Positions 1,978 to 64,000 of a stretch of 64,000 nt of DNA are shown in pieces (position 1 is the first letter of the stretch; the number at the start of each line of letters is the position of its first letter). The DNA is taken from IMG/VR virus record IMGVR_UViG_3300021431_000100, positions 24,871-88,870 of that record; one strand, given 5' to 3'. The stretch comes from a virus. Taxonomy: Duplodnaviria > Caudoviricetes. The position numbers were made by a program, and so were the translations under genes. The notes beneath the pieces are model-generated. The model was not told the DNA's origin. It did no database searches and saw only the letters and a program-made list of their open reading frames with translations.

Positions 1978-2538
1978 AGTGGTGCAGGTTCTTTGGTAAA
2001 TTATGCACTTGGGATTACTCAGGTTAATCCTATGGACTATGATTTGATTTTTGAACGTTTCCTTAATCCAGACAGGGGACACTTGCCCGACATCGACTCA
2101 GATTTTGGTCCTACTAGAGGTTCAGAAGTGTTTGAACATCTTAATGAACTTTATGGCAAAGAAAATTGTTGTAATATTATAACATTCTCAAATCTTCAAG
2201 CAAGAGCGATTATTAAAGACGTATGCCGTTGTTTCGAAGTGCCATTGAATGAAGTAAACGCTGCTACAAAAGTTGTTCCGAAAGATATACATTCTTTTGA
2301 CGAACTTTTGGAGATTGCAGAATTAAAAGAATTTTTTGATAAACATAAGGGAGTTTATCAACATTGTGCTAAATTATATGGTGCACCTAGACATCATTCT
2401 CAACATCCTGCGGGAATTTGTGTATTACCGTTCCCTGTAACGGATATACTTCCTGTAGAAAATGCTACACCAACCATTCATAATATGGTTGGGTTAATGT
2501 CTCAGTATGAGAAGGAAAATGTTGAATTGGTTGGGGGT
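1864..2538 (+). CDS. dnaE: DNA polymerase III alpha subunit, C-terminal split fragment, exon 1 (IntC fused)
   Basis: SGAGSLVNYALGIT, LIFERFLNPDR, PDIDSDF catalytic motif and HPAG; reading frame broken at EL-V-G-G by an intron. Confidence 0.93.
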
Positions 2539-4597
2539 AGAGTAGTAGCTTAATGCCCCTGCAAAGTGTGGAAATTGCTGGAAAGTCCTAAAGTTTATTA
2601 TGCTACAACGTATTCTTAAACAGAACAGCGTGAACGCTTGAAAAATAATAAAATGAGCCGTCATGCTCGTAACGGAAACCACATGACGACGATGAAATGG
2701 ATAATCAGCAGCTAAAACCTCGTCAATGATTTTATTGAAGGGGGATGCTCAACGAGTAAGTAGGGAATACACCCTCGCTCACACTAGCTTAAATGTATTA
2801 AACACTTGGCGTTAAAGTGGCATTTAAGTGAAAGATATGCTCTAATCTTTATAGAAACACAAAGAAAAGGTGGAATGTATGTTATCCACCTAAATTATAA
2901 AATACTTGTTAAAATGCTATATTGTTTTGTTTTAAAATATTTTTTAAATTTTCAGTTGAAAGATTTTCTTTGTAAGAAATGCGGATGAGTGTTATATCAT
3001 GTTCTTTACATAATTTTTCTTTAATTATGTCGTTTTGATGATGTAAATCAAAATCAAACGTAGATATTTTGTTTTTCATTTTGATTTCGTGAAATGGTCC
3101 ATCATATTCAATGGCAAGATTTAAAACGGAGAAATATCCGTCAAGAGATAATTGGTCTTTGTTTTTTAACCAATCAAATTGTTTTTCAAATTCAGGTTCT
3201 TGATTTAAAATTTCTGCTATTTTTAATATACAATAAGTTCCTGTTTGAGACATTTGTGAGGAAAGATTGTTCAATATGTTTAATTCTTGATATACATTGT
3301 TTAAAGAATGGTCAAAATATTTAAGTATGGTTGGCAAACTGTATTTGGATTCATTAATAATAATGTTTTCACTAAGTACCCCATATTTTTTAACAATGGA
3401 ACTTAAATCTGTGAGAATATCATTTTTAGTAATTTTTTTGTGCATATTAGGTTGTAGACCCATTTCTTTTAACAATCCATTAAAACTACCAAAAAATCTA
3501 TCAACCGCACTTTGGGGTATGTTGGCTTCTTTAGACCGTTGGATTTTTGTGTTAAATTTGCCATATTTATGATAAAGCTCAAAAGAACGTTTTAGGATTG
3601 ATTCTTTAGTGAATTCGTTTTGATATGGTTTAATACCATATAATTTTACAAATTTTGCGAAAGAACCATAATGCTTTTTCATTTGAAATTGAGTAAGTTT
3701 TTTATCTGAGTGTGATAAAAAATATTGTAAAGTAAACTTATCTGTTGAATTATCGGATTGAAATAAAGTATATATTCTTTGTAGTTCAGATTTAAATAAT
3801 TGTTTAATTTCAATATTTTGTTGTTTTTCAAGAGGTTGTTCCCCGTTTATACCAATCATTTGTTTAATTTGGGTTAATTTCCCAACAGTTTTTTGAATAT
3901 GATATTGGCTACAATTTGCAACTTTTATTAATTCGTCCATTCGCAAATTACCATTAGTGTTAAAAAGATTTTTTGCAATTTGCAAAATGTCTTTTTTTGT
4001 TGGTTTGTTGAGCTTGGGACGGGTTGCTAGAGCGTCACATTTTACTTTATAAATATCATTCCAACAAGAAAGAGATTTTTTGAAATTTGTAAAAGTTCCA
4101 AATAATTCATAAAAATATTCTTTGTTGTAGTTATTCTTTGTTAAAAAGTCTTTTGCAGAAAAATCAATATGTGTTTGTTCCCAATATTCTTCTCCTTTTA
4201 GAATAGCTTCTTCTTTTGTAAAAGTATAGTTCCCTTTACGGTTAGCTAAATGAGCCATGCTAATTTTGTTTTTGGTTTTTTCTGAATGTGAGCGGTCAGT
4301 TTTGACAGGAGTAAATTTAAAAGTTTTTACGGTAAAATGGTTTGAGTTTTGTTGATTGTATTTTCTAACAAGAGTGAGAAACCCTTCTGTACTTGTAAGT
4401 TCTTTTGACGTATACTTACCTTTTTGAATGTATAAAGTTTTATTAATTGTTCCATATTGATTATAAATTTTATAAAAATCATCAAACAATTCTTGTTCAG
4501 AAAAAGTAGTAATTTTTTTCATATTTTGTTAACAACTCCTTAACAGTTATTATATAATATAATATATAACAAAACAAGTATTTTATAATTTTTTAAG
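2539..4597 (+). mobile_element. Group I intron (IA-like, with P7.1) in dnaE
   Basis: Exon ends in U; P1 GGGGU/GCCCC with U.G pair; P AATTGCTGGAAA 2573, Q AATCAGCAGC 2703, R TCAACGAGTA 2749, S AAGATATGCTCT 2832 with covarying P7; P8 CTTAAATG/CATTTAAG; terminal G at 4597; P10 AGCTTAAT pairs with exon 2 GTTAAGTT; splicing restores VGG-VKLDILKL. Confidence 0.92.
2909..4522 (-). CDS. Intron-encoded homing endonuclease, antisense to the intron (NUMOD3-like motif, repeated helical units, C-terminal Vsr/DUF559-like PD-(D/E)xK nuclease)
   Basis: HSEKTKNKIS motif; repeats of type TKE.IL...FG(S/T)F; C-terminal LDGYF...LAIEYDGPFH...KEKLCKEHDITLIRI; AGGAG RBS. Confidence 0.8.
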   Translation of the reverse strand: MKKITTFSEQELFDDFYKIYNQYGTINKTLYIQKGKYTSKELTSTEGFLTLVRKYNQQNSNHFTVKTFKFTPVKTDRSHSEKTKNKISMAHLANRKGNYTFTKEEAILKGEEYWEQTHIDFSAKDFLTKNNYNKEYFYELFGTFTNFKKSLSCWNDIYKVKCDALATRPKLNKPTKKDILQIAKNLFNTNGNLRMDELIKVANCSQYHIQKTVGKLTQIKQMIGINGEQPLEKQQNIEIKQLFKSELQRIYTLFQSDNSTDKFTLQYFLSHSDKKLTQFQMKKHYGSFAKFVKLYGIKPYQNEFTKESILKRSFELYHKYGKFNTKIQRSKEANIPQSAVDRFFGSFNGLLKEMGLQPNMHKKITKNDILTDLSSIVKKYGVLSENIIINESKYSLPTILKYFDHSLNNVYQELNILNNLSSQMSQTGTYCILKIAEILNQEPEFEKQFDWLKNKDQLSLDGYFSVLNLAIEYDGPFHEIKMKNKISTFDFDLHHQNDIIKEKLCKEHDITLIRISYKENLSTENLKNILKQNNIAF

Positions 4598-6352
4598 GTT
4601 AAGTTAGATATTCTTAAACTCTCAAATATGGAGTCGTTATACGACCAAATTGATTTATTAAAAAAAGAATATGATATAGATATGAAACTCGCAGACATTC
4701 CTCTTGACGACGAAAAGACTTGGGATTTGATTTGTTCTTGTGATACCACAGGCGTTTTTCAGATGGAAGGTGCTATAGGTAAAAATATCATTAAGCAAAT
4801 TCAACCTCATAACATAGAAGAATTGTCAGCGGTTAATGCGTTTGTGCGACCTGGTACTTCTGGTCTTGAAAACTATTGTGCTGCTAAAGAAGACCACTCT
4901 TTAATTCCGAAATATGACCCAAAAATTGATAAATGGTTAGCACCTACTTATGGAGCAATCGTTTATCAGGAGGAGATTCTTGGTATGATTTCCGAAATGA
5001 TGGGCGTGTCATTTGGTCGTGCAGATATTTATCGTCGTGCGTTAGAGAAGCCAAACAAGAAAGGTAACAAAGAGTTATTTGAAGATTTCTTAAACAATGG
5101 TGTATCTAATGCTGTTAAAAATGGTATTGATGAAGAAGGAGCAAAACGCATCCAAAAAGCAATAATTGATAATGCAGGTTATCTCTTTAATAAGAGCCAT
5201 TCGATTGCCTACTCCATAATAAGTTATTGGTGTGCTTGGGTTAAAGCCAATTATCCATTAATTTTTTATCTTTCTTTGTTTAATACTGAGCCTGTATCAA
5301 AATTACAGGATTGTATGCAAGAAGCTATTAAGCATGGAATTAAAATTGAGCCACCTGATATATCTAAATCCAAATTTGAATCCACTATTGAGGATAAAGA
5401 GAATATGGTTATTCGTATGGGTTTGAATTGTGTAAAGGGTATAGGTGACAAAGCTGTTGAGGAATTAACACCACAGCAACCATTTAGCGATTTCGCTGAT
5501 TACTTTGAACGTGCAGGTAAGGGTTCGGGTAAGGGTGTTGTAGAAGCAGGAATTAAAATTGGTGCATTTGAAAGTATGCCGATTAAAATTCATAAGCAGT
5601 TAATTCCCGATAATTGTCCGTTGAATATAAAAGACAACGGTGAAGAAGTTCAAGTATATTTAAATAGAGAGCAACAATTGATTTGGTACAATTCTTATCT
5701 TGATAATAAGAAGAATAAAGCTGTACCGAATTATGCAATCCCTTACGATTTGATTAAGGGCGAATATTTTGATAACTTTGATAGTGACGAATTAATTCAA
5801 GAAAAGGACGGGACTTTAATTATTCCCGAAACCATGCTTGATAAGTTTGGGTTCAATGAAACGCAAGCAGAACAATATAAAACTCGTAAAAAACCAAAGG
5901 GCGTTTTAAAAACTGCAGTAGAAGAATTTAAAATGACCCCTATAGAAAAGGGATTTAAGAGTGCTTACGAAGATATTGTTGCTTGTAAAGAAAGCAAATT
6001 ACAACAGTATTTGCAGAATATGGAAGATTTTGAATTGTCGTTTATTCCACACCCTCTTGAAGCACAAAACAAAATGATTGTTTTAATTAGCGAAGCTAAA
6101 GACGGTGCAACGGTAAAATCAGCAGGAATTATTGTTGATATAATTACCCGACAAACCAAAACGGGCAAGCCTTTTTATAATGTAATTTTGCAAACTCCTA
6201 GAGAGAAACAAAGACTTACTGTATGGAGTAATGTTTTTAATAATTATAGAGATATTATGACAGTAAATCATATTATAAAAATTACAGGTAAGATAGGTTT
6301 TGGTGGTATTACCGTAGACGGAATTTGGGACGCTAAAGCTAATTATAATTAA
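4598..6352 (+). CDS. dnaE: DNA polymerase III alpha subunit, exon 2
   Basis: VKLDIL, TTGVFQME, VRPG, VYQEE, GYLFNKSHS, PPDISKS and GLNCVKGIG motifs plus C-terminal OB fold; in frame 30 nt upstream of ATG 4628. Confidence 0.93.
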   Translation, partial: VKLDILKLSNMESLYDQIDLLKKEYDIDMKLADIPLDDEKTWDLICSCDTTGVFQMEGAIGKNIIKQIQPHNIEELSAVNAFVRPGTSGLENYCAAKEDHSLIPKYDPKIDKWLAPTYGAIVYQEEILGMISEMMGVSFGRADIYRRALEKPNKKGNKELFEDFLNNGVSNAVKNGIDEEGAKRIQKAIIDNAGYLFNKSHSIAYSIISYWCAWVKANYPLIFYLSLFNTEPVSKLQDCMQEAIKHGIKIEPPDISKSKFESTIEDKENMVIRMGLNCVKGIGDKAVEELTPQQPFSDFADYFERAGKGSGKGVVEAGIKIGAFESMPIKIHKQLIPDNCPLNIKDNGEEVQVYLNREQQLIWYNSYLDNKKNKAVPNYAIPYDLIKGEYFDNFDSDELIQEKDGTLIIPETMLDKFGFNETQAEQYKTRKKPKGVLKTAVEEFKMTPIEKGFKSAYEDIVACKESKLQQYLQNMEDFELSFIPHPLEAQNKMIVLISEAKDGATVKSAGIIVDIITRQTKTGKPFYNVILQTPREKQRLTVWSNVFNNYRDIMTVNHIIKITGKIGFGGITVDGIWDAKANYN

Positions 6353-6530: not shown

Positions 6531-9500
6531 ATGAACAGACCTATAAAAGGCGACGGTTATCGCAGAGGTCAGTATGCACATGTTATGTTCCAAGCTAGTG
6601 CATGTGACGTTCCTGAGATGAAAGTCAAAATAAACGAAGGTTCTTTTTGGGTTAATAACCGTACCATTGTAGAATATGGTGGTGGACAGTCCCCACTTAT
6701 CGAAGCTCCAAAATCAGGTGCTAAGTGGGTACTTGTTGCTATTAATAAATTAGGTAAAGTAACTCTTTATAATGGTGTTCCAATGCCTAATAACCCTGAA
6801 CCACCTAAAGTTGATAAGAACGTTCTTCCTGTAGCGTTCGTATTTGTAAAATCTTCCTCTAGGGTTATTACCAATGATATGATTTATGATGCTCGTCCAT
6901 TATACGCTGCAGGTGGTTATCCTGAAGCTCATAATGTGCTTGCAGGTAGAGAAGCAGAAGATTGCCACCCTATTTGTGCGATTTCAGGCTTGCAAGAAGC
7001 TCTTGACGATAAAATTAGTCTTGAAGACGTTCGTGAAGAAGTTGCTCGTAAAGCTGACGTAGACGGTACAACTGCTGCTAACTTTACTCTTAATATTGAC
7101 GATAGTGGTACTCCTGTTGAATATTGTGGTATTCGTGTAAATCGTGGTAATCAGCCACAGGTTGGTTTACGCTTTAACGAAGACGAAGATATGTGGCAGT
7201 ATACCAACGACGGTACTAATTGGCACGCAATTGGTGGAGGCGTAGGTTTAACTGATTTAGCTTCTTATTATAATGCAGGTATCACTCAGTTGTCTTGCGA
7301 ACCTGAAAATGCTAGACACCCAATTGCTGTTGGTGATAATGACCCTCGTTTGAAGGAAATTGAAAAGAAAATTGGTCGTGACGAATTACGTCGTGATTAT
7401 GTTTCTAAAGATGATATAGAAAAACTACTTTCTGAAAAAGCTGATTCTGACGCAGTATTTAACAAAGAAGATGCTGAAAATATTTTCTTGACCCGTGCAG
7501 AATTCAGACAGAATGGTGGTTATACTAAGTCTCAGCTCAACGATTTCTTTGACGCAAAAGCAAATGTTTCCTCTGTATATACCCGTAAGGAAGTTGAAGA
7601 AAAGTTAGGCAATTATTATAACAAAGAAGATATTAATATTCTTCTTGAAAAGATTGACGATAAATGCCATTGCTGTTGCGGTAAAGGTTCTGCTGACGTA
7701 GACCTTTCTGATTATTATACTGCTGAACAGATTGACGAATTAATCCGTCATCTTGACGAAAAGGAATATGACATTGATGAAGTAGACGAGAAAGTTTCCA
7801 ACCTTCAGACCGCAATTTATGATTTGCGTAATATGATTGGTGAAGGTGGTAGCGGAACTCCTATTAACACTTATTCTAAGGAAGAAATTGACGAAAAAAT
7901 TTTGCAGGTTGTAACTAGCACTCAGCATAATTGCAAGCACTGCGAACAGCTTTCCGAATTAACCAACTATTACACCAAAGCAGACGTTAATTTGCTTATG
8001 TCTGATAAAGCTGACATTAATCATGGTCATACTGCAAATCAGATTTCTCAGGATTCCAACCACCGTATGGTAACTGATGACCAAATTACTGCTTGGAATA
8101 ATAAGGCTGAATCTCTTAAATATGTTGCGGAAAACGTAGAAAAGAAGGGCGTAGCTAACGGTTATGCTTCTCTTGATGAAAACGGTAAAGTTCCTGTAGA
8201 ACAACTTCCTACAATGAATGTCGGTGTAGGTAAGGGCGGTGTTCAGTTTGTTGATACTTATAATGAGTTACTTAGCATTACTGAACCTGATACTGACAAG
8301 ATTTACTTTGTAACTGACGCTAGTGATGATTCCACCGTAGACAATGGTTGGGCTGAATATGTATTTGCTAAAGACGCTTGGTTAAAGATTGCAGAAGGTG
8401 AAGCTCTTGATATGGAGCTTGACTATAACAATCTTAAAAATATCCCTGATTACTTTGCTGTAGACCCTGAAATTCTTGCAAAGTATGGTACTATCGGTAC
8501 TGCGGGCAATGTTTATACCAAGACTGAAGTAGATAACTTGCTCGAAGGTAAGTCTGACGCAAACCATAACCATGACGGTGATTATATTACTGCTGAAGGT
8601 TTAACTACTGCTTTGGCAGATTATGTTAAGACTGATAATGAAAAACTTCATTCTGCAAATCAGTTAGGTTCTTTCTCTGTTAGCGAAGCTAATATGGAAG
8701 ACGGTGCAGTTCTTACCTACAATGCAGAAAAAGACGCTCTTGAATATAAGAAGATTACTGTTACTTCCGAAAATGACGGCAGTGATAAGTACGACGTTGG
8801 TAATTATCGTATCACTGAACCTGAAACTCTTGAAGACGGTATGGCTATCGTATATGAAACTGACGACCTTGGTAAAGGACGTTTAACTTATAAGAAGATT
8901 ACTGCTTCTGAGACTTCTTCTGACAGCACTAAAGTTGGTACTGTTGAAGTAGACGAAACTGATAAGGCAGAAGGTAAAGTTCTTACTTATGAGAATGATA
9001 AACTCGTTTATAAGGCACTTCCTACAATTCCTGATAATCTCCCTGAGATTGACGATACTGATAAAGCAGAAGGTAAAATTCTTGCATTGCAGAACGACGG
9101 TAAGTTAGGTTATGTAGATATGCCAACAGGTTCTAGTGAAGGTGGTTCTGCTACTAATAATGGTCAGAAAACTTTTAACCTTGTAAGCCCTGACGGTCTT
9201 GTAAAAGGTCAGTTCCGTGCTGATAGCAAGAACGCTGTAACTATTGATTATAGTGGCGATACTTACACTCTAACTTTGGATAGAAGTCAGAATGTTCAAA
9301 TGATTCAATTTGTAACAAACAATATGATTGACAAAGTATTGTATATTAATACCGAATTCACTGACGGTAAGAAATGGTCTTGGCAGGACGGCAGTTACTT
9401 CGATATGCCAATTCCTTTGATTTCTTACATTCAGGTTAATGGTAATCAGCTTCAAAAAACAACTAGTGGTTCTTATGGCGTTGATGATTGCGACAAATTC

Positions 9501-20072: not shown

Positions 20073-20632
20073 GCGATATAAAACGTTTTGACCCCGAATT
20101 TACAGAGGACGGGCAGTTTATACCCAAACAAAAGTTCTGTGCTAGTTGTAAAAAACGTATGCAATGCGACAAGTTATATGATAAACGCAAAGAAAATCAT
20201 ACTACTAATGACTATTCAGAAATTGTATTGGATATGTATTATACATGCGACGAGCATGAAGCCATGTATATAGAATTCCCTATTTTGGTTAATGGAATTA
20301 CTAGTGATATTGCTTTTGACCGAGATAATAATGAATTCAGAGTTGGTGATATGTGTATTGTTTCTGTTAATGCCGAGGGGTTTGACGACAAATTACATTT
20401 AGGTATATATTTGGGCATGTTGCCTGTATCAATTATATCTTTATATGATAAGAAAAATACAAAAATTACAAATAAGTTTAATCCTAATCCTGCTATATTT
20501 GTACCCAAGTTTAATAAAGTATTTTATGGTATGAATATGCGGTGGCAGTTTATAGAATCTAAAGAGGATTTGCTTGGGTTAGACGACAATGAACCTGTCG
20601 ATTATCTCAATATGGTTAATAACAAATTTTAA
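20069..20632 (+). CDS. Hypothetical phage protein
   Basis: 187-aa ORF, ATGA-coupled; CxxC...C N-terminus and NPAIFVP motif. Confidence 0.7.
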   Translation: MSDIKRFDPEFTEDGQFIPKQKFCASCKKRMQCDKLYDKRKENHTTNDYSEIVLDMYYTCDEHEAMYIEFPILVNGITSDIAFDRDNNEFRVGDMCIVSVNAEGFDDKLHLGIYLGMLPVSIISLYDKKNTKITNKFNPNPAIFVPKFNKVFYGMNMRWQFIESKEDLLGLDDNEPVDYLNMVNNKF

Positions 20633-20638
20633 AATTTT

Positions 20639-20670
20639 CCTCACTGTTTTTAAACAGTGAGGATTTTTTT
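20639..20670 (+). terminator. Intrinsic terminator insulating the cas operon
   Basis: CCTCACTGTTT / AAACAGTGAGG with T-run. Confidence 0.8.
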
Positions 20671-20690
20671 GTAAAAAATTTAAAAAACTA

Positions 20691-20719
20691 TTGACATTTT
20701 ATTGAGTTTGTGATTTAAT
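20691..20719 (+). promoter_or_regulatory. Sigma-A-like promoter of the cas operon
   Basis: TTGACA-N17-TTTAAT with TG extension and upstream A-tract; RBS GAAAGGA. Confidence 0.65.
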
Positions 20720-20776
20720 ATAATTGTAAGTTTGAAAAGTAATTAAATATTACAATTAGAAAGGATGACTTAAACT

Positions 20777-21979
20777 ATGGCAAAAAAGAAAAATACTAGT
20801 AACACCACAACCGCTACTACTGCACCTGTTAAGGAATTGACCAACTTTTCTTTGGAACGCAGTTTGTTTGTTTCAAGTGCAGGAAAGCTCAGTGCTGTTA
20901 AGTGGGAAAACCGACATGGAATTCAGGCAGATGTTCTTATCGACAAATTTCAGGGTGGTGCAAATGCTTGTAAAACCCACTATATGAAAGACGAGGCTAC
21001 TATTTTAGCGGAAGCTTGTGACAACAATACTCAGCAAGACCTTGATATATGTCACCTTCCTGTAGGATTTGATACTTTGTGCTTGGAATTTTCTGTGGAG
21101 GCACAGCCATTTAACAAGAAGCGAATTTCCGCTTGTAATCTTATGTCAGTAAGAAAGCGTTTGGCTTCCCTTGTTACTGAGTATGTAACTAATTGGGGAT
21201 TTAAGGACATTGCAGTGCCTTATGTAAACAACGTGGTTAATGGTTGTAGTTTGTGGAGAAATCAGAACAGTGCTGACGAGATTATAACTGAAATCGAGAT
21301 TGGCAATGGTAAGCAGTTTGTTTTCAATTCTTTTAACTACGACCAGAACAAGTTTACAACAAACGACCCTCAGATTAACGAGATTGCAGATATGATTGCC
21401 GACACCCTTTGTGGGAAGCAGAGATTGTTCAAGATGACTGTCCGTATTTATGCTCGCCTTGGTGACAGACATATTGTATATCCTTCTCAAAACCTTATTA
21501 TGGACACTAAAGGCAAGTTCCTTTATGAGTTGAATTCCGACCACCTTGCAGGACTGCATGACACTAAGATTGGTGCCGCGTTGCGTCGTATTGATACTTG
21601 GTATCCAGATTATATTAATAACAATAAAGAACCTATTCCTGTATACGCTTATGGTCAGGATAGAACTGAGAACATTGTTCATAGATATTCTTTTGACAGC
21701 AATATTTATGGATATATTAAGACTTGGTTGCTTGAAGAACAGGATATTCCTGACGAAGCAAAGCATTTTGTTATGAGTTGTTTCGTTTTTGGTGGAGTAT
21801 TTAACCCAAAAAATAACAATGACAAGAACGACGCTAACAATAATAACAATGCTGACGCTAATGGCGATAAGACTGAAACTAACGATAGTGAAGTTAAGGC
21901 TGAGGCTGAGGAAACCGTTAAGACTGACGTTAACAAAAATGAGGCTGACGACGCTAACGCTACTTTGGCTATGTTTTGA
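20777..21979 (+). CDS. cas7f: Type I-F Cascade backbone Cas7f (Csy3)
   Basis: LP..DTL, VNG..LWRN, VYPSQ.L, KIGAALRRIDTWYP and PIPV..YG motifs characteristic of Csy3. Confidence 0.9.
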   Translation: MAKKKNTSNTTTATTAPVKELTNFSLERSLFVSSAGKLSAVKWENRHGIQADVLIDKFQGGANACKTHYMKDEATILAEACDNNTQQDLDICHLPVGFDTLCLEFSVEAQPFNKKRISACNLMSVRKRLASLVTEYVTNWGFKDIAVPYVNNVVNGCSLWRNQNSADEIITEIEIGNGKQFVFNSFNYDQNKFTTNDPQINEIADMIADTLCGKQRLFKMTVRIYARLGDRHIVYPSQNLIMDTKGKFLYELNSDHLAGLHDTKIGAALRRIDTWYPDYINNNKEPIPVYAYGQDRTENIVHRYSFDSNIYGYIKTWLLEEQDIPDEAKHFVMSCFVFGGVFNPKNNNDKNDANNNNNADANGDKTETNDSEVKAEAEETVKTDVNKNEADDANATLAMF

Positions 21980-21992
21980 GGAGGTTTGAATA

Positions 21993-22535
21993 ATGTTTAG
22001 TCAGGAGATTGTGTTGGATGAACCGAGCACTCACATGTTGAGTAATGTAATGAAAAAACTGCATGGTCTGTTTAGTCAGGAGGTAAATTGTGGGAAATTC
22101 GCTGTGTCTTTCCCACAGCATTCCTTCAATAACAAGAAAGAACTCCAACTTGGCAATACAATTAGCGTTTTGTGCAACGAAGAAAAAACTTTGGCTGATT
22201 TAAATTTGTTACAGGAGTTTTCTGAATGGAAACTTCTTACCGTTAAGCCTAACATTACAAGTGTTGATAAATATTGTCTGTTTAAACGGGCACACCTTCA
22301 TTCTTACAAGGCTCATGTAACAAGAAAAATGAAGCGTGGAACACTGACTAATACAATTGATTTGTTTCAAGCACAAGAAAAGAAAAAGGAAGAATTTTCA
22401 AAACATGCGTGTTTGAAAATGTCAAGTAAATCTACAAGACGTTATATGAAGCTGTATATTACAAAAAGCAAAAACGTTGAAAATGCCAAGTTCAATTCTT
22501 ATGGATTGGTTACAGAAAGGATTAGTAATGGCTAA
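21993..22535 (+). CDS. cas6f: Type I-F crRNA endoribonuclease Cas6f (Csy4)
   Basis: KLHGL (catalytic His), AVSFP, LG..I, SSKST and FNSYGL motifs. Confidence 0.82.
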   Translation: MFSQEIVLDEPSTHMLSNVMKKLHGLFSQEVNCGKFAVSFPQHSFNNKKELQLGNTISVLCNEEKTLADLNLLQEFSEWKLLTVKPNITSVDKYCLFKRAHLHSYKAHVTRKMKRGTLTNTIDLFQAQEKKKEEFSKHACLKMSSKSTRRYMKLYITKSKNVENAKFNSYGLVTERISNG

Positions 22536-23649
22536 GAAGAAGAAAGAACCAAAAGATTTTAAAACTGAAACTGAACATGCGATTAACAAGTTGGTTAAGG
22601 CTAATACTTTTAAAAAGATGTTGGCAAATGACTGTTTTGACTCTACAATGTTTGCAACCCACGTTTCAAAGTTTTTGCATACTAAAATTAGCTTAAATAA
22701 CGTTGCCAATTTGTTTGATGATTCGGTTGCAGATAATCGTGATTATTTATGTACTGCAAATTCGGGTTATAGTGACCCTGATATTATTTTTAATGGAGCA
22801 ACCGTTAAAGCTATGCTTGCGACATTTTTATCATGTGAAATTACATATAAAGATGCACAAGGAGTTGAGAAGATTGTTACCATATTGCAGTTATTAAAAG
22901 ACGATTACAAATATTTACGTGACGCTATAACATATTTGATTGACGAGAATTATCTTTTTGTTGTGGACGATTATGACGATTTTCGTAATAAGGCGTTGAG
23001 TTGTGTTAAAACTCCTATGCCTATAAATTCTAGCCCATTGAACAATCAGATTTATTTCCCTGTTGCTGAAAATGACTATGTTTTGCTTGACCCTATTCCT
23101 TCTACTGTACTTTTTAAAGAGGTGCATAATAAGTTAAAAAATGTAAAAAATGTTTCAAAAATTCGTTATGCTATGGGTAGCGATAAGTGGAGAAACACAA
23201 CCACGAGCAAGATTGTTACCAAAACAGGCGATTTCGTCACGAGAGATATGTCTGCTAATTATATGTTCCTTACTTTGCCCCCACAAAGCTTGTTGAAAAA
23301 GAATAAGCGTAAGGTAATTTATCCAAAATTTAATGTGGAAAATATGCAAGGTGTACAGAACGGAATGCTTATTGATGACACTTTGCTTGATACAATTTGT
23401 AAAGAAGGTCTGAGAGGTCGGGCTACTGCCAAGGCTGAACGTGCAGAACGTGACGACAGTGTTAAGAGAAACTTTTTGGAAAAATATGGTTGGAGTGTAA
23501 TCCCCAACGGATATGAAATTCATCATATTATCCCAATTTCTCAAGGTGGAGCAGATGCAGTAGAAAACATGATTTTGTTAACAAAAGCACAACATGCAAT
23601 TATTACTCGTTGCCATTCTGCATATTTTGGGTGGCACATGAGGGTGTAA
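22528..23649 (+). CDS. cas8f: Cas8f (Csy1)-like large subunit with C-terminal HNH nuclease
   Basis: ATHVSKF.H and QIYFPV...Y.LL.P Csy1 motifs; C-terminal EIHHIIPISQGG...ENMILL...QH; ATG 22528 after AGAAAGG, overlapping the cas6f stop. Confidence 0.82.
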   Translation: MAKKKKEPKDFKTETEHAINKLVKANTFKKMLANDCFDSTMFATHVSKFLHTKISLNNVANLFDDSVADNRDYLCTANSGYSDPDIIFNGATVKAMLATFLSCEITYKDAQGVEKIVTILQLLKDDYKYLRDAITYLIDENYLFVVDDYDDFRNKALSCVKTPMPINSSPLNNQIYFPVAENDYVLLDPIPSTVLFKEVHNKLKNVKNVSKIRYAMGSDKWRNTTTSKIVTKTGDFVTRDMSANYMFLTLPPQSLLKKNKRKVIYPKFNVENMQGVQNGMLIDDTLLDTICKEGLRGRATAKAERAERDDSVKRNFLEKYGWSVIPNGYEIHHIIPISQGGADAVENMILLTKAQHAIITRCHSAYFGWHMRV

Positions 23650-23661
23650 AAGGAGGCAACT

Positions 23662-24480
23662 ATGGGGAAGTATGTTTTGATTGACGGAGTAGAAATTTTT
23701 GGTGCGAATGCATTTCATCGCATTTGTGTAGGTACTCCAGCTATGACAGCGTTAATGGGCTTTGTAGAAAAGTTGAAAAATGAACTGAGGGAAGAATATA
23801 ATAATCCTGCCATTAATATAGAAGCGGGATTTATTATTAATGATTATTGGCTTGACGCAGTTAAGGACTCAAAATATAAGTCGCTTCACATGAACGCAAA
23901 GACTGTAGAATATTATCGTGGTGACAGTAACCATTCACAAAAAAAGATTTTGAGTTGTCAGTCAGTGTCTAATCAGGCGTATATGGATTTAAACATGTCG
24001 TTTCTTTTAAAAATTGAAAATTTGCAAATTACCAATGACGTAACATGTTTTATTAAAAATATAGTTGAAACTTTGCGTGTTGCGGGTGGTAAAATTACAG
24101 AAGTTGACGACGTGTTTGAAATTGAAGACCTTCAAGACGTAGAATGGGGTGGACGTTTTATTACCTGCGAACAACATGCTTTGAATGAAGCAGAGGGTGA
24201 CAATATGCTTGACAAGATGATTAAAGCTTGTCAGGATGATTATAGACTGAAAGTAATTCCTTATGGATATAGACAGGAAACCCCGTTTCGTTTAAATGTT
24301 AAAAATGTACGAGAAGAAAATGTACCACATTGTTTTGTTGAATCAATTTATACATTGATTAAATTTAAACATATTTCTGAAATTGAAAGCATTGATGAGC
24401 TTTGGTGGCATTATGAATATCGTGAAGGTAGCAACAATGATGGTATTTTCATTTGTACACAAGAAAAATCAGTTGAATAA
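23662..24480 (+). CDS. cas5f: Type I-F Cas5f (Csy2)
   Basis: N-terminal I.GANA....GTPAMTALMGF..KL motif, LRVAGG.I and position in the operon. Confidence 0.8.
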   Translation: MGKYVLIDGVEIFGANAFHRICVGTPAMTALMGFVEKLKNELREEYNNPAINIEAGFIINDYWLDAVKDSKYKSLHMNAKTVEYYRGDSNHSQKKILSCQSVSNQAYMDLNMSFLLKIENLQITNDVTCFIKNIVETLRVAGGKITEVDDVFEIEDLQDVEWGGRFITCEQHALNEAEGDNMLDKMIKACQDDYRLKVIPYGYRQETPFRLNVKNVREENVPHCFVESIYTLIKFKHISEIESIDELWWHYEYREGSNNDGIFICTQEKSVE

Positions 24481-24496
24481 ATTGCTAAAAAAAATA

Positions 24497-24526
24497 TTGA
24501 CAAACACTCTTTAATTAACATATAAT
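24497..24526 (+). promoter_or_regulatory. Sigma-A-like promoter upstream of the SSB gene
   Basis: TTGACA-N18-TATAAT. Confidence 0.6.
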
Positions 24527-24662
24527 ATTTTATGTCAGGAATATTAAACAATTGCAGTGACAATCAATATTCGCTGACATAAAATATTATAGCTACATTG
24601 ACCGAGTTGCCACACATGCACTACAGCTAATATAGCATATCAAGCAAACTAGGTACAATGTA
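24521..24662 (+). ncRNA. Candidate structured RNA / leader between cas5f and the SSB gene
   Basis: Perfect 18-bp inverted repeat 24521-24538/24574-24591 with inner stems; second stem TACATTG-ACC / GGT-A-CAATGTA 24594-24662. Confidence 0.35.
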
Positions 24663-24688
24663 ATACAGTTAATGGAGGTATTTTATTT

Positions 24689-25345
24689 ATGTCTACCACT
24701 ACAAGTTTTAACATGGATTGGGGCGACGTTCAGACAGGAAGCTCCAAACAGGCAGATTTTATGAAGTTGAAGGATGGTGTAAACCTTCTTCGTATCGTAA
24801 GTAAGCCATCTCAGCTTGCATTGCATTGGGAAGCTACTACTGACGGTCAGCGTAAGAAGATACTTTGCACAGGCAGTTCTGATTGTATTCTTTGTGAACA
24901 TGGTTCTCGTGCTACAAGACGTTTTCAGTTCCTTGTAATTGACAAGAATGAGAATTGGGACGCACAGAAGCAGGAATACACAGGCGAGCCAAAGGTAAAG
25001 ATTTTCGAGACAGGTGCTTCCGTAGTTAAACAGATTCAGGACTATGCTAATGACGTTGAATATGGCGACCCTGAGAAATACGATATTCGTATTAAAAAGG
25101 AAGGTACAGGTAAGGACACTCGTTATTCTGTACTCCCTTCTCGTAACTCTAGTGAGCTTACCGACGTTGAGAAGAAAGCAGTAGAGGAAGCTCCAACAAT
25201 TGAGAGTTTGAACAAGATTCCGTCCAAGAGTGAAATCCTTGATATGCATCTTGCCATTCTTCAGGGCGTTGGCAATGACAGTTCTGCTCCTTCTTCCAAG
25301 TCCACTGAGGACGACGGTTGGGGCGACGATTTCGACAACTTCTAA
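24689..25345 (+). CDS. Phage single-stranded DNA-binding protein (gp32-like)
   Basis: FMKLKDG...RIV, His/Cys cluster (HW...C...C..C), YDIRIKKEGTG...RYSV and acidic aromatic tail DDGWGDDFDNF. Confidence 0.7.
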   Translation: MSTTTSFNMDWGDVQTGSSKQADFMKLKDGVNLLRIVSKPSQLALHWEATTDGQRKKILCTGSSDCILCEHGSRATRRFQFLVIDKNENWDAQKQEYTGEPKVKIFETGASVVKQIQDYANDVEYGDPEKYDIRIKKEGTGKDTRYSVLPSRNSSELTDVEKKAVEEAPTIESLNKIPSKSEILDMHLAILQGVGNDSSAPSSKSTEDDGWGDDFDNF

Positions 25346-32320: not shown

Positions 32321-33163
32321 TTATCGAACAAATACTACAGCAGTACGGTCAAGGAAATGAGTACGCTCATTTTCGGCAAGAATTCGCAGTGCGTCCTCAT
32401 TTGAAACCATAGGACTTGCGTTTACTACTGTATTCTGCTGAAAACCAATAGCCCTTACAACGAGTGGGTTAGAACCTGCCCTTGGGCAGTTTGCAATATC
32501 CTTGGAAAAACCACACATGCCATTCTGTACTACGGTATTATGGTCAATATTTCTCAGCCCATAAAATGGTTTGTTGTTAGCGTCCACAATAGTAGGAGCC
32601 ATTGTCGGCTCTAAACCTAAACCACTGCAGTCTACAATAAGACCTGTATAATTTCCATTTGCACTCATACGAGCGTTATTGCGTTCAACAGGAGTAACAC
32701 TTGGGGAAGAATAAGTATCTGTAGTACAAATATTCTCCTTTGATACGTCAGGAATAATTGCAGAAGCAAGGGAGTTGGTAGTGCCAAACAGTGGCATCTC
32801 TACCGTAACAGTATAGGTTTCATCGGCAGGATTCCATTCTTCCTTTACAATTTTTGCGTTCTTAACAACGCCCTCTACACGAGCATTGACAACTTCACTA
32901 CCGAATGCAAGGTCTTCGGTAGAAGAACTAGCCTTTACCCATACGCCCTTTGCTTCTTCAAGAAGCTGTCTGTAAGCGTTCAATACAGCTGCTCTGCGAG
33001 CATGAGCTTTCTTTGCTCCAATCTTGGTATCAGTTGCCTTTGGTAAACCGATTTCTGTAACAGTAATACAGTTATCCTCAAAAGATGCTTCCGACATTGC
33101 AAATGCACTTGTGCTGACCATTAACGTCAAAATCATGGTCATAATCATAAAAATCTTCTTCAT
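32321..33163 (-). CDS. Exported LPP20/FlgT-N-like protein
   Basis: Sec signal peptide (…SAFA); ARRAAVLNAYRQLLE..GV.V motif. Confidence 0.55.
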   Translation of the reverse strand: MKKIFMIMTMILTLMVSTSAFAMSEASFEDNCITVTEIGLPKATDTKIGAKKAHARRAAVLNAYRQLLEEAKGVWVKASSSTEDLAFGSEVVNARVEGVVKNAKIVKEEWNPADETYTVTVEMPLFGTTNSLASAIIPDVSKENICTTDTYSSPSVTPVERNNARMSANGNYTGLIVDCSGLGLEPTMAPTIVDANNKPFYGLRNIDHNTVVQNGMCGFSKDIANCPRAGSNPLVVRAIGFQQNTVVNASPMVSNEDALRILAENERTHFLDRTAVVFVR

Positions 33164-33165
33164 AA

Positions 33166-33873
33166 TTAAATCAATCCTTTCTTTGCTCTTTCTGCTCTAA
33201 GTTTAGCTCTATACGTTTCTATATTTACGTCAGGGTCTAAAGTGTACCCATAACGTTCAAAAACATCTGTCCATTCTTTAGTTCCAAACATTCTGTAGCA
33301 CCAATTAGGATTGAAATATGGTTCACCACCATAATATAAAATCCACGCTGCTTCAGCAATGCTACGCATATTTCTTTCAAACAAAGTTAAATTCGGTTTT
33401 TCTGAAATATCCTTGTAATAAAACCAAGTATATTCAGTGGTTGCATAAGAGTTAATATTTGGCTTGTGATAACTCAATATACAAAAACTACGCTTCTTTA
33501 CGTCCTCGTCCCAAAAATAATAGATTACGTTTCTTCGATAACCAACTTCACCTACTGTTTTTGTTACCATTCGTTTTGTACAGGTCATTTCAATGTCTAA
33601 TGCAACGGTACATTTATCGTAAATGTGTTTACCATCATAAATATCTGCGTCGTCAGGACTAGCTTCTCTAATCCCATCTGTTACATAGCATCTGCTATCG
33701 CAACCCCATCCACTTTCACCTAAATATTCGTTAGGTGGTGGTTCGGTTACAGCCATCCTCCACTTGACTTCTCGTGAAACAAATGCACCTTTATCCAATA
33801 CTGATTCACGAGCAAATGATGTGGTTGGTATAAGAATAATCAATGCTAAAAGCATACTTAGAATTCTTTTCAA
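33166..33873 (-). CDS. Exported hypothetical protein
   Basis: Signal peptide MKRILSMLLALIILIPTTSFA. Confidence 0.65.
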   Translation of the reverse strand: MKRILSMLLALIILIPTTSFARESVLDKGAFVSREVKWRMAVTEPPPNEYLGESGWGCDSRCYVTDGIREASPDDADIYDGKHIYDKCTVALDIEMTCTKRMVTKTVGEVGYRRNVIYYFWDEDVKKRSFCILSYHKPNINSYATTEYTWFYYKDISEKPNLTLFERNMRSIAEAAWILYYGGEPYFNPNWCYRMFGTKEWTDVFERYGYTLDPDVNIETYRAKLRAERAKKGLI

Positions 33874-35270
33874 GTTATATCCCCCCTATCTGTATTATTC
33901 ATATAAGATAAATCGTTGAAACAGTCTTTATTTGACTTTTTGTATTTAAGAATTTGATTTATAATGCGTTTTCTAATGTCAATATAGACAATATCCGCAG
34001 GATGTTGAATTGCTATTAAATAAGCTTTCTTAAAATACTTTTCTGTATCTTCAAAAGATACGAAATAGTTACAGCCTTTGAGATAATATGAAAACGCTTT
34101 GTTATTTGTTCGTTCGAGGTTAAATGTACTGATTTTTTTATGAATTTCTTGGTATTTTTCTTTCGACGTTGCGTCGTCGAGACTTTGTTTGTAATAAGTA
34201 TAATAGTTTAAAGCTGTTACATTGTCATAATAACTATTTTCGTTCATAGCTACATGTTTAAAATTGTACACGGCATAATTATCTGTTCGGGCAGGAAAAT
34301 AAGTAAGTATATATGCTTCGGTATATCTTCCTGCGTCTGCCAAAGCCATTGCTAAAATATTAACTGACGGATAAATATTCTCCAAAGTGTATTGTGGGGC
34401 ACGTTCGCCTCTAAACCCTGACTTCCACGGTACAGGCTTATATTTGCTTGCGAAATTGTTTAGAATTTCATATCCCGTGGCAATCGCCAAATTATATTGA
34501 TTGGAATAATAATATGCAATTTCTTTGGCGTATAATCCATAAAAATCTGTTGAATTTATGGATAATAACTCATTAGCTACACCTATCGTATCAGCATTAT
34601 TCATGTGAGCGTATGACAAACATAGATATTCCCGTGCTCTAAGGCTTAAAACTTTTCGCTCTTGTGACATATCGTCTGAGGAATGTAGTAACATTTGTTG
34701 ACAATACTGTACGCAAGTACCATACTGTTCTTGACGATAAGCTTGTACAGCAAGTTTATATAGATTACTTATATCGTCGTCTTTTAAAGAAGTCGGATTA
34801 ATGGATTGCTTCTTGTATTCTTCCGCTTCTTGTTCGTTGATATTTGACAGTTCACGATAATATTCCTTCTGAGCGACCTCTTTGGCTTTATCCAAAGCCT
34901 TTAGCAACATATCGTCGTCAACGTTTACTATTAAATGGCATGTAAGCCCTTCGTTGGTTGTAGAGAATTCTTTTTTTAAAACCTGTTGTATCGAAGCTGT
35001 TGTGGCTATAATTACTTCTGTGTCGTATGCCATATCACGTGTTTTTGTTAAACTTTCTACCACAATACCCAATTGTTCGGAAACTTTCATTTGAGCATTT
35101 TTATAGGCAAGTTTTTCCTGCACGTCGTATATAACTTCATTTAAAGAATTACGCTCTTTGGCATATTCGACTGAAATAGGTTCTGAAGTAACTTCGATTG
35201 TATGAGTTTTTGCCATAACGTGTGGTGAAAAACAAACCACACATAGCAGAGCTATAATAAATCTTTTCAT
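33870..35270 (-). CDS. Exported protein with LPP20-like N-terminus and TPR-like helices
   Basis: Signal peptide (…HVMA); AVQAYRQEQYGTC and EIAYYYSNQYNLAI TPR-like units. Confidence 0.55.
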   Translation of the reverse strand: MKRFIIALLCVVCFSPHVMAKTHTIEVTSEPISVEYAKERNSLNEVIYDVQEKLAYKNAQMKVSEQLGIVVESLTKTRDMAYDTEVIIATTASIQQVLKKEFSTTNEGLTCHLIVNVDDDMLLKALDKAKEVAQKEYYRELSNINEQEAEEYKKQSINPTSLKDDDISNLYKLAVQAYRQEQYGTCVQYCQQMLLHSSDDMSQERKVLSLRAREYLCLSYAHMNNADTIGVANELLSINSTDFYGLYAKEIAYYYSNQYNLAIATGYEILNNFASKYKPVPWKSGFRGERAPQYTLENIYPSVNILAMALADAGRYTEAYILTYFPARTDNYAVYNFKHVAMNENSYYDNVTALNYYTYYKQSLDDATSKEKYQEIHKKISTFNLERTNNKAFSYYLKGCNYFVSFEDTEKYFKKAYLIAIQHPADIVYIDIRKRIINQILKYKKSNKDCFNDLSYMNNTDRGDIT

Positions 35271-35294
35271 ATTATTTTCTCCTTGTTTGTATTA

Positions 35295-63326: not shown

Positions 63327-64000
63327 ATGGCAAACAAAAACGTAACACATTCCAAGAACTACATTCAGATTGTACCAAATGATTTTATCAATCTGTTCCT
63401 TGATTTGTATTCTCACGAGAATTCAATTGAACGTAACCCTGCAATTATGCTTTGGGGTCAGCCTGGTGTTGGCAAGTCTCAGGCAGTAAAGGAAGCTGCA
63501 CAACTTCTTGCTAAAAAGCTTCATAGAAAGGCAAAGGTAACTGTTGCTTCTCTGTTGCTTATGAACCCAATTGACCTTCGTGGTATTCCTGCCAAGGCTG
63601 AAAATGACGCAGGTGAAATTGTAGCTCGTTGGCTGACTCCTGAGATTTTTAAGATGGACGATAGCGACGATGTATTAAATGTACTGTTTCTTGACGAAAT
63701 TTCCGCTGCTCCACCTTCTGTTCAGGCTGCTGCTTATCAGATTTGTCTTGATAAGCGTGTTGGTGAGCATCAGCTTCCAAAGAATTGTATTGTAATCGCC
63801 GCAGGTAACAGAATCACCGATAAGGCAGTAGCATACAAGATGCCAAAGCCTCTTGGCAACCGTCTTACCCATTTTGAAATGGTAGCTTCCGTAGAGGACT
63901 GGAAGAAGTGGGCTTACAAGAATGATATTGATACTCGTATCATTGGTTTCATTAACCATGACCATGATTATCTGTGTAGATTCGACCCTTCCGTAGAGGA
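63327..64000 (+). CDS. MoxR-like AAA+ ATPase, 3'-truncated (absent from the ORF track)
   Basis: LWGQPGVGKS, PIDLRGIP, LFLDEI and AAGNR...PL.NR motifs; own promoter and AGAGG RBS; runs off the window. Confidence 0.85.
   Translation, partial: MANKNVTHSKNYIQIVPNDFINLFLDLYSHENSIERNPAIMLWGQPGVGKSQAVKEAAQLLAKKLHRKAKVTVASLLLMNPIDLRGIPAKAENDAGEIVARWLTPEIFKMDDSDDVLNVLFLDEISAAPPSVQAAAYQICLDKRVGEHQLPKNCIVIAAGNRITDKAVAYKMPKPLGNRLTHFEMVASVEDWKKWAYKNDIDTRIIGFINHDHDYLCRFDPSVE

Follow-up and report, generated by a model that had tools for sequence, protein, structure and literature searches.

A type I-F Cas8-HNH Cascade on a phage genome fragment without a CRISPR array

We examined a 64,000-nt stretch of DNA from a very large gut or rumen phage (the window; bases 24871-88870 of the 88,870-bp IMG/VR virus record IMGVR_UViG_3300021431_000100, Duplodnaviria; Caudoviricetes) that carries four co-oriented genes at 20777-24480, namely cas7f, cas6f, cas8f::HNH and cas5f. 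Going by its sequence, this operon is a type I-F Cas8-HNH Cascade ('HNH-Cascade'), an already-known system type. No CRISPR array accompanies it anywhere on the record, and a single degenerate repeat overlaps the cas5f stop. Because the effector is intact and maintained, yet locally array-less, its guides must, in our reading, be supplied in trans, from outside the operon's flanks. The leading source, which we put at somewhat under an even chance, is an array on an unsampled part of the phage genome, in which case the operon would be unlinked and not, as an earlier reading of the window from its letters alone (the sequence-only reading) had it, an orphan. The four genes and the families that they match are:

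20777-21979, + strand: cas7f (Csy3), 400 aa; Pfam Cas_Csy3 at 6.7e-65, TIGR02566 above cutoff, PADLOC Cas7f
21993-22535, + strand: cas6f (Csy4) endoribonuclease, 180 aa; Pfam Cas_Csy4 at 7.7e-17
22528-23649, + strand: cas8f::HNH, 373 aa; Pfam Csy1 at 7.6e-15 and HNH at 1e-5
23662-24480, + strand: cas5f (Csy2), 272 aa; Pfam Cas_Csy2 at 4.3e-24, PADLOC Cas5f at 8.6e-29

The Cas8f-HNH protein, whose start at 22528 is preceded by a GAAAGGA ribosome-binding site, has an N-terminal Csy1 domain at residues 58-246 and a C-terminal HNH domain at residues 346-368 (Pfam; numbering of the 390-aa open reading frame, ORF), and it matches over its full length (9.2e-47) the 'Cas8f fusion with HNH' of PDB 8YDB/9SJN (Selenomonas sp.; also 8W1P). 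The residues of the HH...N...H motif, H332/H333, N347 and H356, are invariant in an alignment of Cas8-HNH homologues (alignment A1) and align to the Selenomonas protein; by this comparison the HNH catalytic motif is intact, and nuclease competence is predicted. Cas6f aligns to the Cas6 chain of PDB 8W1P (8w1p_I; 1.5e-16) through its LH, S-ST and SYGL motifs, and keeps the catalytic His, Ser and Tyr together with the C-terminal Tyr-Gly-Leu, which bears out the catalytic His that the sequence-only reading had noted. Neither Cas1 nor Cas3f/Cas2-3 has a match on the 88.9-kb contig. In the mechanism that we propose, Cas6f would process the CRISPR RNA (crRNA), on which Cas5f, Cas8f and six Cas7f subunits would assemble, and the Cas8f-fused HNH domain would cut the target, making Cas3 unnecessary.

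Comparison with a natural variant that covers 22105-23788 (L001) reveals 22 differences, 18 of them synonymous and 4 non-synonymous, which indicates that cas6f, cas8f and cas5f are under strong purifying selection. None of the four cas ORFs is disrupted, and a promoter and ribosome-binding sites belong to the operon itself.

No repeat-spacer series was found in the 64-kb window, where Tandem Repeats Finder and a direct-repeat finder returned coding and low-complexity repeats only, nor in the whole 88.9-kb contig, which takes in 24.9 kb further upstream. On the contig, k-mer chain and sliding-window scans (20-36-nt windows, spacings of up to 160 nt) recovered protein-coding repeats only, in a leucine-rich-repeat-like gene and in tail-fibre-like genes, and none in the intergenic gaps. 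The absence of such a series, reported for the window by the sequence-only reading, thus stands and extends to all 88,870 bp, leaving 45 kb upstream and 40 kb downstream of the operon without an array. A canonical array elsewhere on the contig was likewise sought, and none was found by these scans or by a covariance model of the I-F repeat. This model, trained on the repeats of relatives and on three canonical repeats, and run with filters off, detected no canonical I-F repeat on the contig, not even a solitary one; its top match there, at 11 bits (E=1.4), is without the hairpin. Applied to repeats on which it had not been trained, among them solitary and degenerate ones of other phages and bacteria, the same model gives 24.6-44.9 bits. 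Rfam gave no match, and fuzzy matching to the Selenomonas and PA14 repeats gave nothing within 9 mismatches. An adjoining array of 28-nt I-F repeats and 32-nt spacers, a membership feature of Cas8-HNH systems, is therefore absent from this locus.

The flanks of the operon, described earlier as holding only a terminator, promoters and hairpins, do contain a terminator and promoter upstream and a promoter and hairpin downstream, but the downstream flank also holds a degenerate I-F-like repeat. Of any degenerate array in the flanks, this single vestigial repeat is all that was found:

24465-24492, + strand: degenerate I-F-like repeat, AAAAT-CAGTT-GAATA-AATTG-CTAAAAAA, overlapping the cas5f stop

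The element consists of a 5-nt flank, a 5-bp stem (CAGTT/AATTG), a GAATA loop with the TAA stop within it, and the CTAAAAAA handle. When both strands of the contig were scanned for a 5-bp stem, a G-N-A-T-A loop and a handle agreeing with CT[T/A]AGAA[A/T/G] in at least 6 of its 8 positions, the three were combined at a single site, 24465-24492, with a handle match of 7/8. First-order Markov simulations of the contig yield a mean of 0.33 qualifying sites per genome, and the chance of sense-strand placement at the cas5f end is estimated to be of the order of 1e-3 or less, a soft figure, because the handle criterion was relaxed after the site had been seen. The vestigial repeat begins 3 nt past the conserved Cys-Thr-Gln (CTQ) codons of Cas5f, and the first repeat of the metagenomic relative L002, described below, 5 nt past them. 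Its fold is that of a canonical repeat, but at -1.3 kcal/mol compared with -9 to -10 kcal/mol in real repeats, and its covariance model score of 5.5 bits lies under the contig background of 11 bits. No second copy was found downstream, elsewhere on the contig or in IMG/VR, and the 32 nt that follow the element are the 12/12 sigma-70 promoter of a gene for a single-stranded DNA-binding protein (SSB). The element is probably what is left of the first repeat of an array that once lay downstream; we think it fairly likely that it is not a chance match, and quite improbable that it is still functional.

Solitary repeat units can act as RNA anti-CRISPRs, termed Racr (Camara-Wilpert et al. 2023, PMC10651486), while degenerate mini-CRISPRs of the CreR/crlRNA kind regulate cas genes (bioRxiv 10.1101/2023.03.10.532045; 10.1101/2024.10.29.618823). 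The present element resembles both in being a lone hairpin, repeat-like and followed by an I-F handle, that a phage carries by cas genes, but unlike them it lacks its own promoter, a second repeat and any identifiable target. Where a Racr unit is a close repeat mimic under its own promoter, the element scores 5.5 bits and sits at the cas5f end, and the CreR/crlRNA arrangement of two degenerate repeats with a pseudo-spacer partly complementary to a promoter, by a protospacer-adjacent motif (PAM), is absent here. The pseudo-spacer at 24493-24524 was considered as a regulatory guide and rejected, as a search of the rest of the contig for partial targets that combine a seed match with a C-N PAM found none. 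Other phage contigs in IMG/VR do carry solitary canonical I-F repeats outside arrays, which score 28-44 bits against the 5.5 bits of the present element and are candidate Racr-type RNA anti-CRISPRs (L130:2175-2202, L136:2841-2868, L138:477-504 and 580-607, L139:1260-1334).

Proteins of the Cas8-HNH type are rare, with 6 clusters (50% identity) at E<=1e-30 among 1.84 billion representative proteins, and the phage operon proteins are 34-42% identical to known relatives. No relative was found in IMG/VR through Cas8-HNH, alignment A1, Cas7f or SSB searches, or in GTDB contigs scanned with the peptide patterns of alignment A1. The nearest relative with DNA, at 37% identity, is the metagenomic contig OCTX011659458.1 (L002), which shares with the phage the gene order cas7-cas6-cas8HNH-cas5 and a repeat a few nt after the Cas5 CTQ codons. 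Unlike the phage, it has arrays on both sides of the operon (11 and 3 repeats) built on a GC-rich canonical repeat, GTTAACCACCGCATAGGTGGCTTAGAAT, and its neighbours are bacterial or mobile-element genes (AAA/DUF4143, ATPase_2/DUF234, a resolvase). The L002 arrays lie at 2462-3102 and 6561-6712; the downstream one is leaderless and its diverged first repeat overlaps the cas5 stop, which implies transcription by read-through from the cas operon. At another locus (L003), the Selenomonas repeat GTGTACCGCCGGATAGGCGGTTTAGAAG is found ~120 nt past cas5. Across Pseudomonas, Selenomonas and these loci the I-F repeats are almost invariant (repeat alignment A2), and the phage effector would therefore be expected to use such a repeat.

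In the Cas8-HNH system, HNH substitutes for Cas3 and makes a precise double-strand cut directed by a crRNA with a 32-nt spacer (Altae-Tran et al. 2023, PMC10910872); the PAM of the Selenomonas Cas8-HNH is 5'-CN (PMC11480323), and structures are available for the complex of Selenomonas sp. RGIG9219 (PDB 8W1P, 8YDB; PMC11480323, PMC11459484). The phage operon shares with the RGIG9219 HNH-Cascade its set of four genes, the HNH domain in place of the Cas8f helical bundle and the lack of cas3. It differs in sequence (~35-40% identity), in being AT-rich and located on a huge phage, not in a bacterium, and in insertions or extensions of Cas7f and Cas8f; furthermore, the Selenomonas locus has an array of 28-nt repeats and 32-nt spacers ~120 nt after cas5, whereas the phage has none adjoining. 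The C-terminal extension of Cas7f (window 21789-21979) comprises ~60 aa of low complexity, rich in Asn, Asp and Lys, is missing from the relatives (334 aa in L002), and is partly encoded by an imperfect 27-nt direct repeat (21812-21838 / 21932-21958).

Vibrio phage ICP1 reportedly has arrays, Cas1 and Cas2-3 of its own with its type I-F system; the contig has none of these, and cutting would fall to the Cas8f-fused HNH. What the two have in common is that a type I-F effector is encoded by the phage, which in ICP1 puts it to its own use (bioRxiv 10.1101/2024.03.09.584257). Array-less phage Cas9 has been described as 'biomimicry', with a trans-activating crRNA (tracrRNA) matched to host repeats and the use of host CRISPR RNA proposed (PMC10910872), and in huge phages compact arrays are common, adaptation genes are lacking and components are missing, with some phages sharing repeats with their hosts (PMC7162821). 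These systems are like the present one in being phage-borne, without a linked array and without adaptation genes; they are, however, class 2 systems or effector-less arrays, whereas here the effector is a complete class 1 complex, no tie to a host repeat is seen, and the lack of an array applies to the 88.9 kb scanned.

The contig is a fragment, since ORFs are interrupted at both of its ends (window 63327-64000; genome 2-874), the record is classed as linear in IMG/VR, CheckV completeness is 50%, no terminase, portal or major capsid family was matched by any of ~50 of the largest contig proteins, and identical proteins occur on a contig of 404,374 bp. The latter is the longest of those on which the exact Cas7f and the exact 373-aa Cas8-HNH are recorded, each on two contigs; the others with the same proteins measure 63,116 bp and 41,253 bp. 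The contig would thus amount to at most half of the phage genome, and probably to about a fifth. Orphan status consequently describes the contig, on which there is no array, but is not established, the contig being a fragment at CheckV 50%. The phage has no DNA match in the GenBank phage collection. Its contig is rich in replication and recombination genes (a split DnaE, primase, helicase, UvsX, SbcCD, SSB, ThyX and PhoH), and the best phage match of DnaE is in the 497-kb Bacillus phage G (43%), a further point in favour of a much larger genome.

A link to a host family comes from a 2.1-kb block, window 33132-35271, which is 89% identical in nucleotide sequence to a segment of a Selenomonadaceae species genome (G026:C13:12472-14614). 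The matching contig, 19.5 kb long, is otherwise an ordinary chromosome (holB, serA, serC, metA; GC 0.44-0.46) with nothing else in common with the phage, which indicates recent gene exchange with Selenomonadaceae, the family in which Cas8-HNH was first found. The phage probably infects this family, as judged from the shared block. Exact canonical I-F repeats are present, mostly in arrays, in 28 of the 262 Selenomonadaceae species genomes, and full-length Cas8-HNH in 3; use of host arrays is feasible because of this exchange link and the repeats available. DNA is shared between the phage and two genomes, G026 and G027, neither of which shows I-F repeats. None of 1,691 spacers from I-F arrays (GTDB, IMG/VR, L002 and L003) matches the phage above chance level, the best having 21 identities, and none of eight fetched 27-42-nt phage matches in Selenomonadaceae genomes lies inside an array. 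The shared block itself is a two-gene module of minus-strand ORFs, 33166-33873 (235 aa) and 33870-35270 (466 aa), with no Pfam or PHROG family, and sits in a block of reversed GC skew.

Among possible guide sources, we place a distant array of the phage itself first, since the contig leaves at least half of the phage genome, and probably ~80% of it, unsampled. An array would once have stood 3' of cas5f, as in L002, and would have been reduced to the single decayed repeat; Cascade-HNH would now be loaded in trans with crRNAs bearing canonical I-F repeats, drawn from an unlinked and probably short array in the unsampled 50-80% of the genome. That L002 and L003 keep arrays beside the same gene order supports this proposal, as do the intact and selected genes, the expectation that the effector uses a conserved I-F repeat of which the contig has none, and the compact arrays that are common in huge phages (PMC7162821). 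There are also points that weigh against it. No such array has been seen, and its existence elsewhere, like its place, is purely something that we infer. All the relatives examined have their array adjoining the cas genes, as do most phage systems described so far, so an unlinked arrangement would be atypical. The 404-kb contig is tied to the phage by identical proteins only, and another replicon or a misassembly is possible in principle. Finally, as there is no Cas1 or Cas2-3 on the contig, the phage alone could not update its array. What holds of the earlier proposal is a functional effector with guides from beyond its own flanks; its three sources (a distant phage array, host type I-F arrays or a non-canonical single-guide RNA) could not be separated.

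A phage without any array might instead hijack host type I-F crRNAs through its own Cas6f and Cascade, an explanation that we regard as a serious though less likely contender. The loaded complex would either cut the phages and plasmids against which the host holds spacers, competitors whose loss would benefit the phage, or divert crRNAs from the host effector; such diversion would parallel, in class 1, the 'biomimicry' of array-less phage Cas9. Hijacking would account for purifying selection on an operon with no array or adaptation genes in 88.9 kb, and it is favoured by the block 89% identical to a Selenomonadaceae chromosomal contig, by the canonical I-F repeats (28/262) and full-length Cas8-HNH (3) of that family's species genomes, by near-invariant repeats that make cross-loading plausible, and by the precedents of Cas9 matched to host repeats (PMC10910872) and of repeats shared between phage and host (PMC7162821). 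It is disfavoured by the lack of I-F repeats in G026 and G027, by the dependence on a minority of hosts that repeats in ~11% of species genomes would entail, by the 0/1,691 I-F spacers that match the phage, by the danger that the phage's own genome would be cut if an active HNH took up a host spacer directed at it, and by the placement of the host at family level only. In its widest form, which we hold just as tentatively, a huge phage without its own array would arm a nuclease-competent class 1 Cascade-HNH with host I-F crRNAs, against competing mobile elements or host immunity, and the decayed repeat would be the trace of an abandoned array or a retained Cas6f site. 

That the solitary repeat at 24465-24492 is itself functional seems improbable to us. 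Here Cas6f would cut the cas read-through transcript after G24484 and release a single crRNA-like RNA, with the handle CUAAAAAA and downstream sequence, or the element would set or regulate the 3' end of the cas mRNA, in a CreR/crlRNA-like or autoregulatory manner. No other contig site combines the 5-bp stem and GNATA loop with a 7/8 handle match, and this one coincides with the cas5f stop on the sense strand; the stem still pairs at all five positions although AT-rich sequence has replaced the canonical one, no terminator lies between cas5f and the element, and cas-regulating degenerate mini-CRISPRs are known (bioRxiv 10.1101/2023.03.10.532045). However, its score of 5.5 bits lies below the contig background of 11 bits, its hairpin is only marginally stable (-1.3 kcal/mol), a second repeat that could supply a 3' hairpin is missing, the would-be spacer is the SSB promoter and has no partial C-N PAM target on the contig, and IMG/VR holds no similar repeat. 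One decayed, partnerless repeat thus lends weak support to a non-canonical single guide. Least credible of all, in our judgement, is a recently captured operon that is decaying and without current function. Loss of the adjoining array, the lack of adaptation genes and cas3 on the contig, and the degeneracy of the remaining repeat are what such a remnant might leave; it is unlikely because of the purifying selection (18:4 synonymous to non-synonymous between two natural variants), the four intact ORFs with conserved catalytic motifs, and the operon's own promoter and ribosome-binding sites, and identity of 34-42% to known relatives argues for long residence and not recent capture. Guide-independent roles of other kinds take the remaining weight.

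The Cas8-HNH system type and phage CRISPR systems with missing components were already known. What is new is a divergent Cas8-HNH Cascade on a huge phage, apart from any array, and a vestigial repeat as the record of the array's loss. Our literature search found no account of a phage-encoded Cas8-HNH; the literature that it did find on Cas8-HNH concerns bacterial loci recognised through linked arrays. Cas8-HNH Cascades are of interest as compact, precise genome editors. Should the complete phage genome prove array-less, this would be a class 1 case of a virus that brings the effector only and borrows its guides, and the trans-use of host crRNAs would be directly testable with the four-gene operon. 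Should an unlinked array exist, the operon would be an ordinary but useful addition to Cas8-HNH and huge-phage CRISPR diversity.

Elsewhere on the contig, the largest non-coding gap is 510 nt long (genome 17876-18385; window -6994 to -6485; L007:4976-5485). A terminator in it is followed by a near-consensus promoter at genome 17967 and by ~400 nt in which no ORF is called; a small gene or a non-coding RNA may be encoded there. Neither this gap nor the other contig gaps have CRISPR-like repeat content. The gene for the DnaE-type DNA polymerase III alpha is split into pieces at genome 19137-21248 and at window 4628-6352, and the minus strand between these carries an HNH/homing-endonuclease ORF (window 2909-4522). 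The ORF cut by the 3' end of the contig has a Walker-A-like GQPGVGKS motif and, by eye, resembles an AAA+-type ATPase. The remaining features of the operon's flanks are:

20638-20663, + strand: intrinsic terminator of the upstream phage gene, an 11-bp stem followed by a T-run
20691-20719, + strand: cas operon promoter, sigma-70-like (TTGACA, 17 nt, TTTAAT)
24497-24526, + strand: consensus 12/12 sigma-70 promoter of the gp32-like SSB gene, outside the CRISPR system
24521-24591, + strand: long inverted repeat (perfect arms of 18 nt) that forms the SSB leader's 5' hairpin

The arms of the inverted repeat lie at 24521-24538 and 24574-24591, and the -10 box of the SSB promoter falls inside it. This hairpin was considered as a guide scaffold and rejected: it has no similarity to the I-F repeat and starts at the predicted SSB transcription start. 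We infer that it is better read as part of a structured leader of the gp32-like SSB gene, which is 160 nt long and folds at -40.7 kcal/mol (z=-3.5). Gene 32 of phage T4 has an autoregulated leader, and the region at 24497-24688 may, by analogy, be an autoregulatory leader of the same kind, or an operator.

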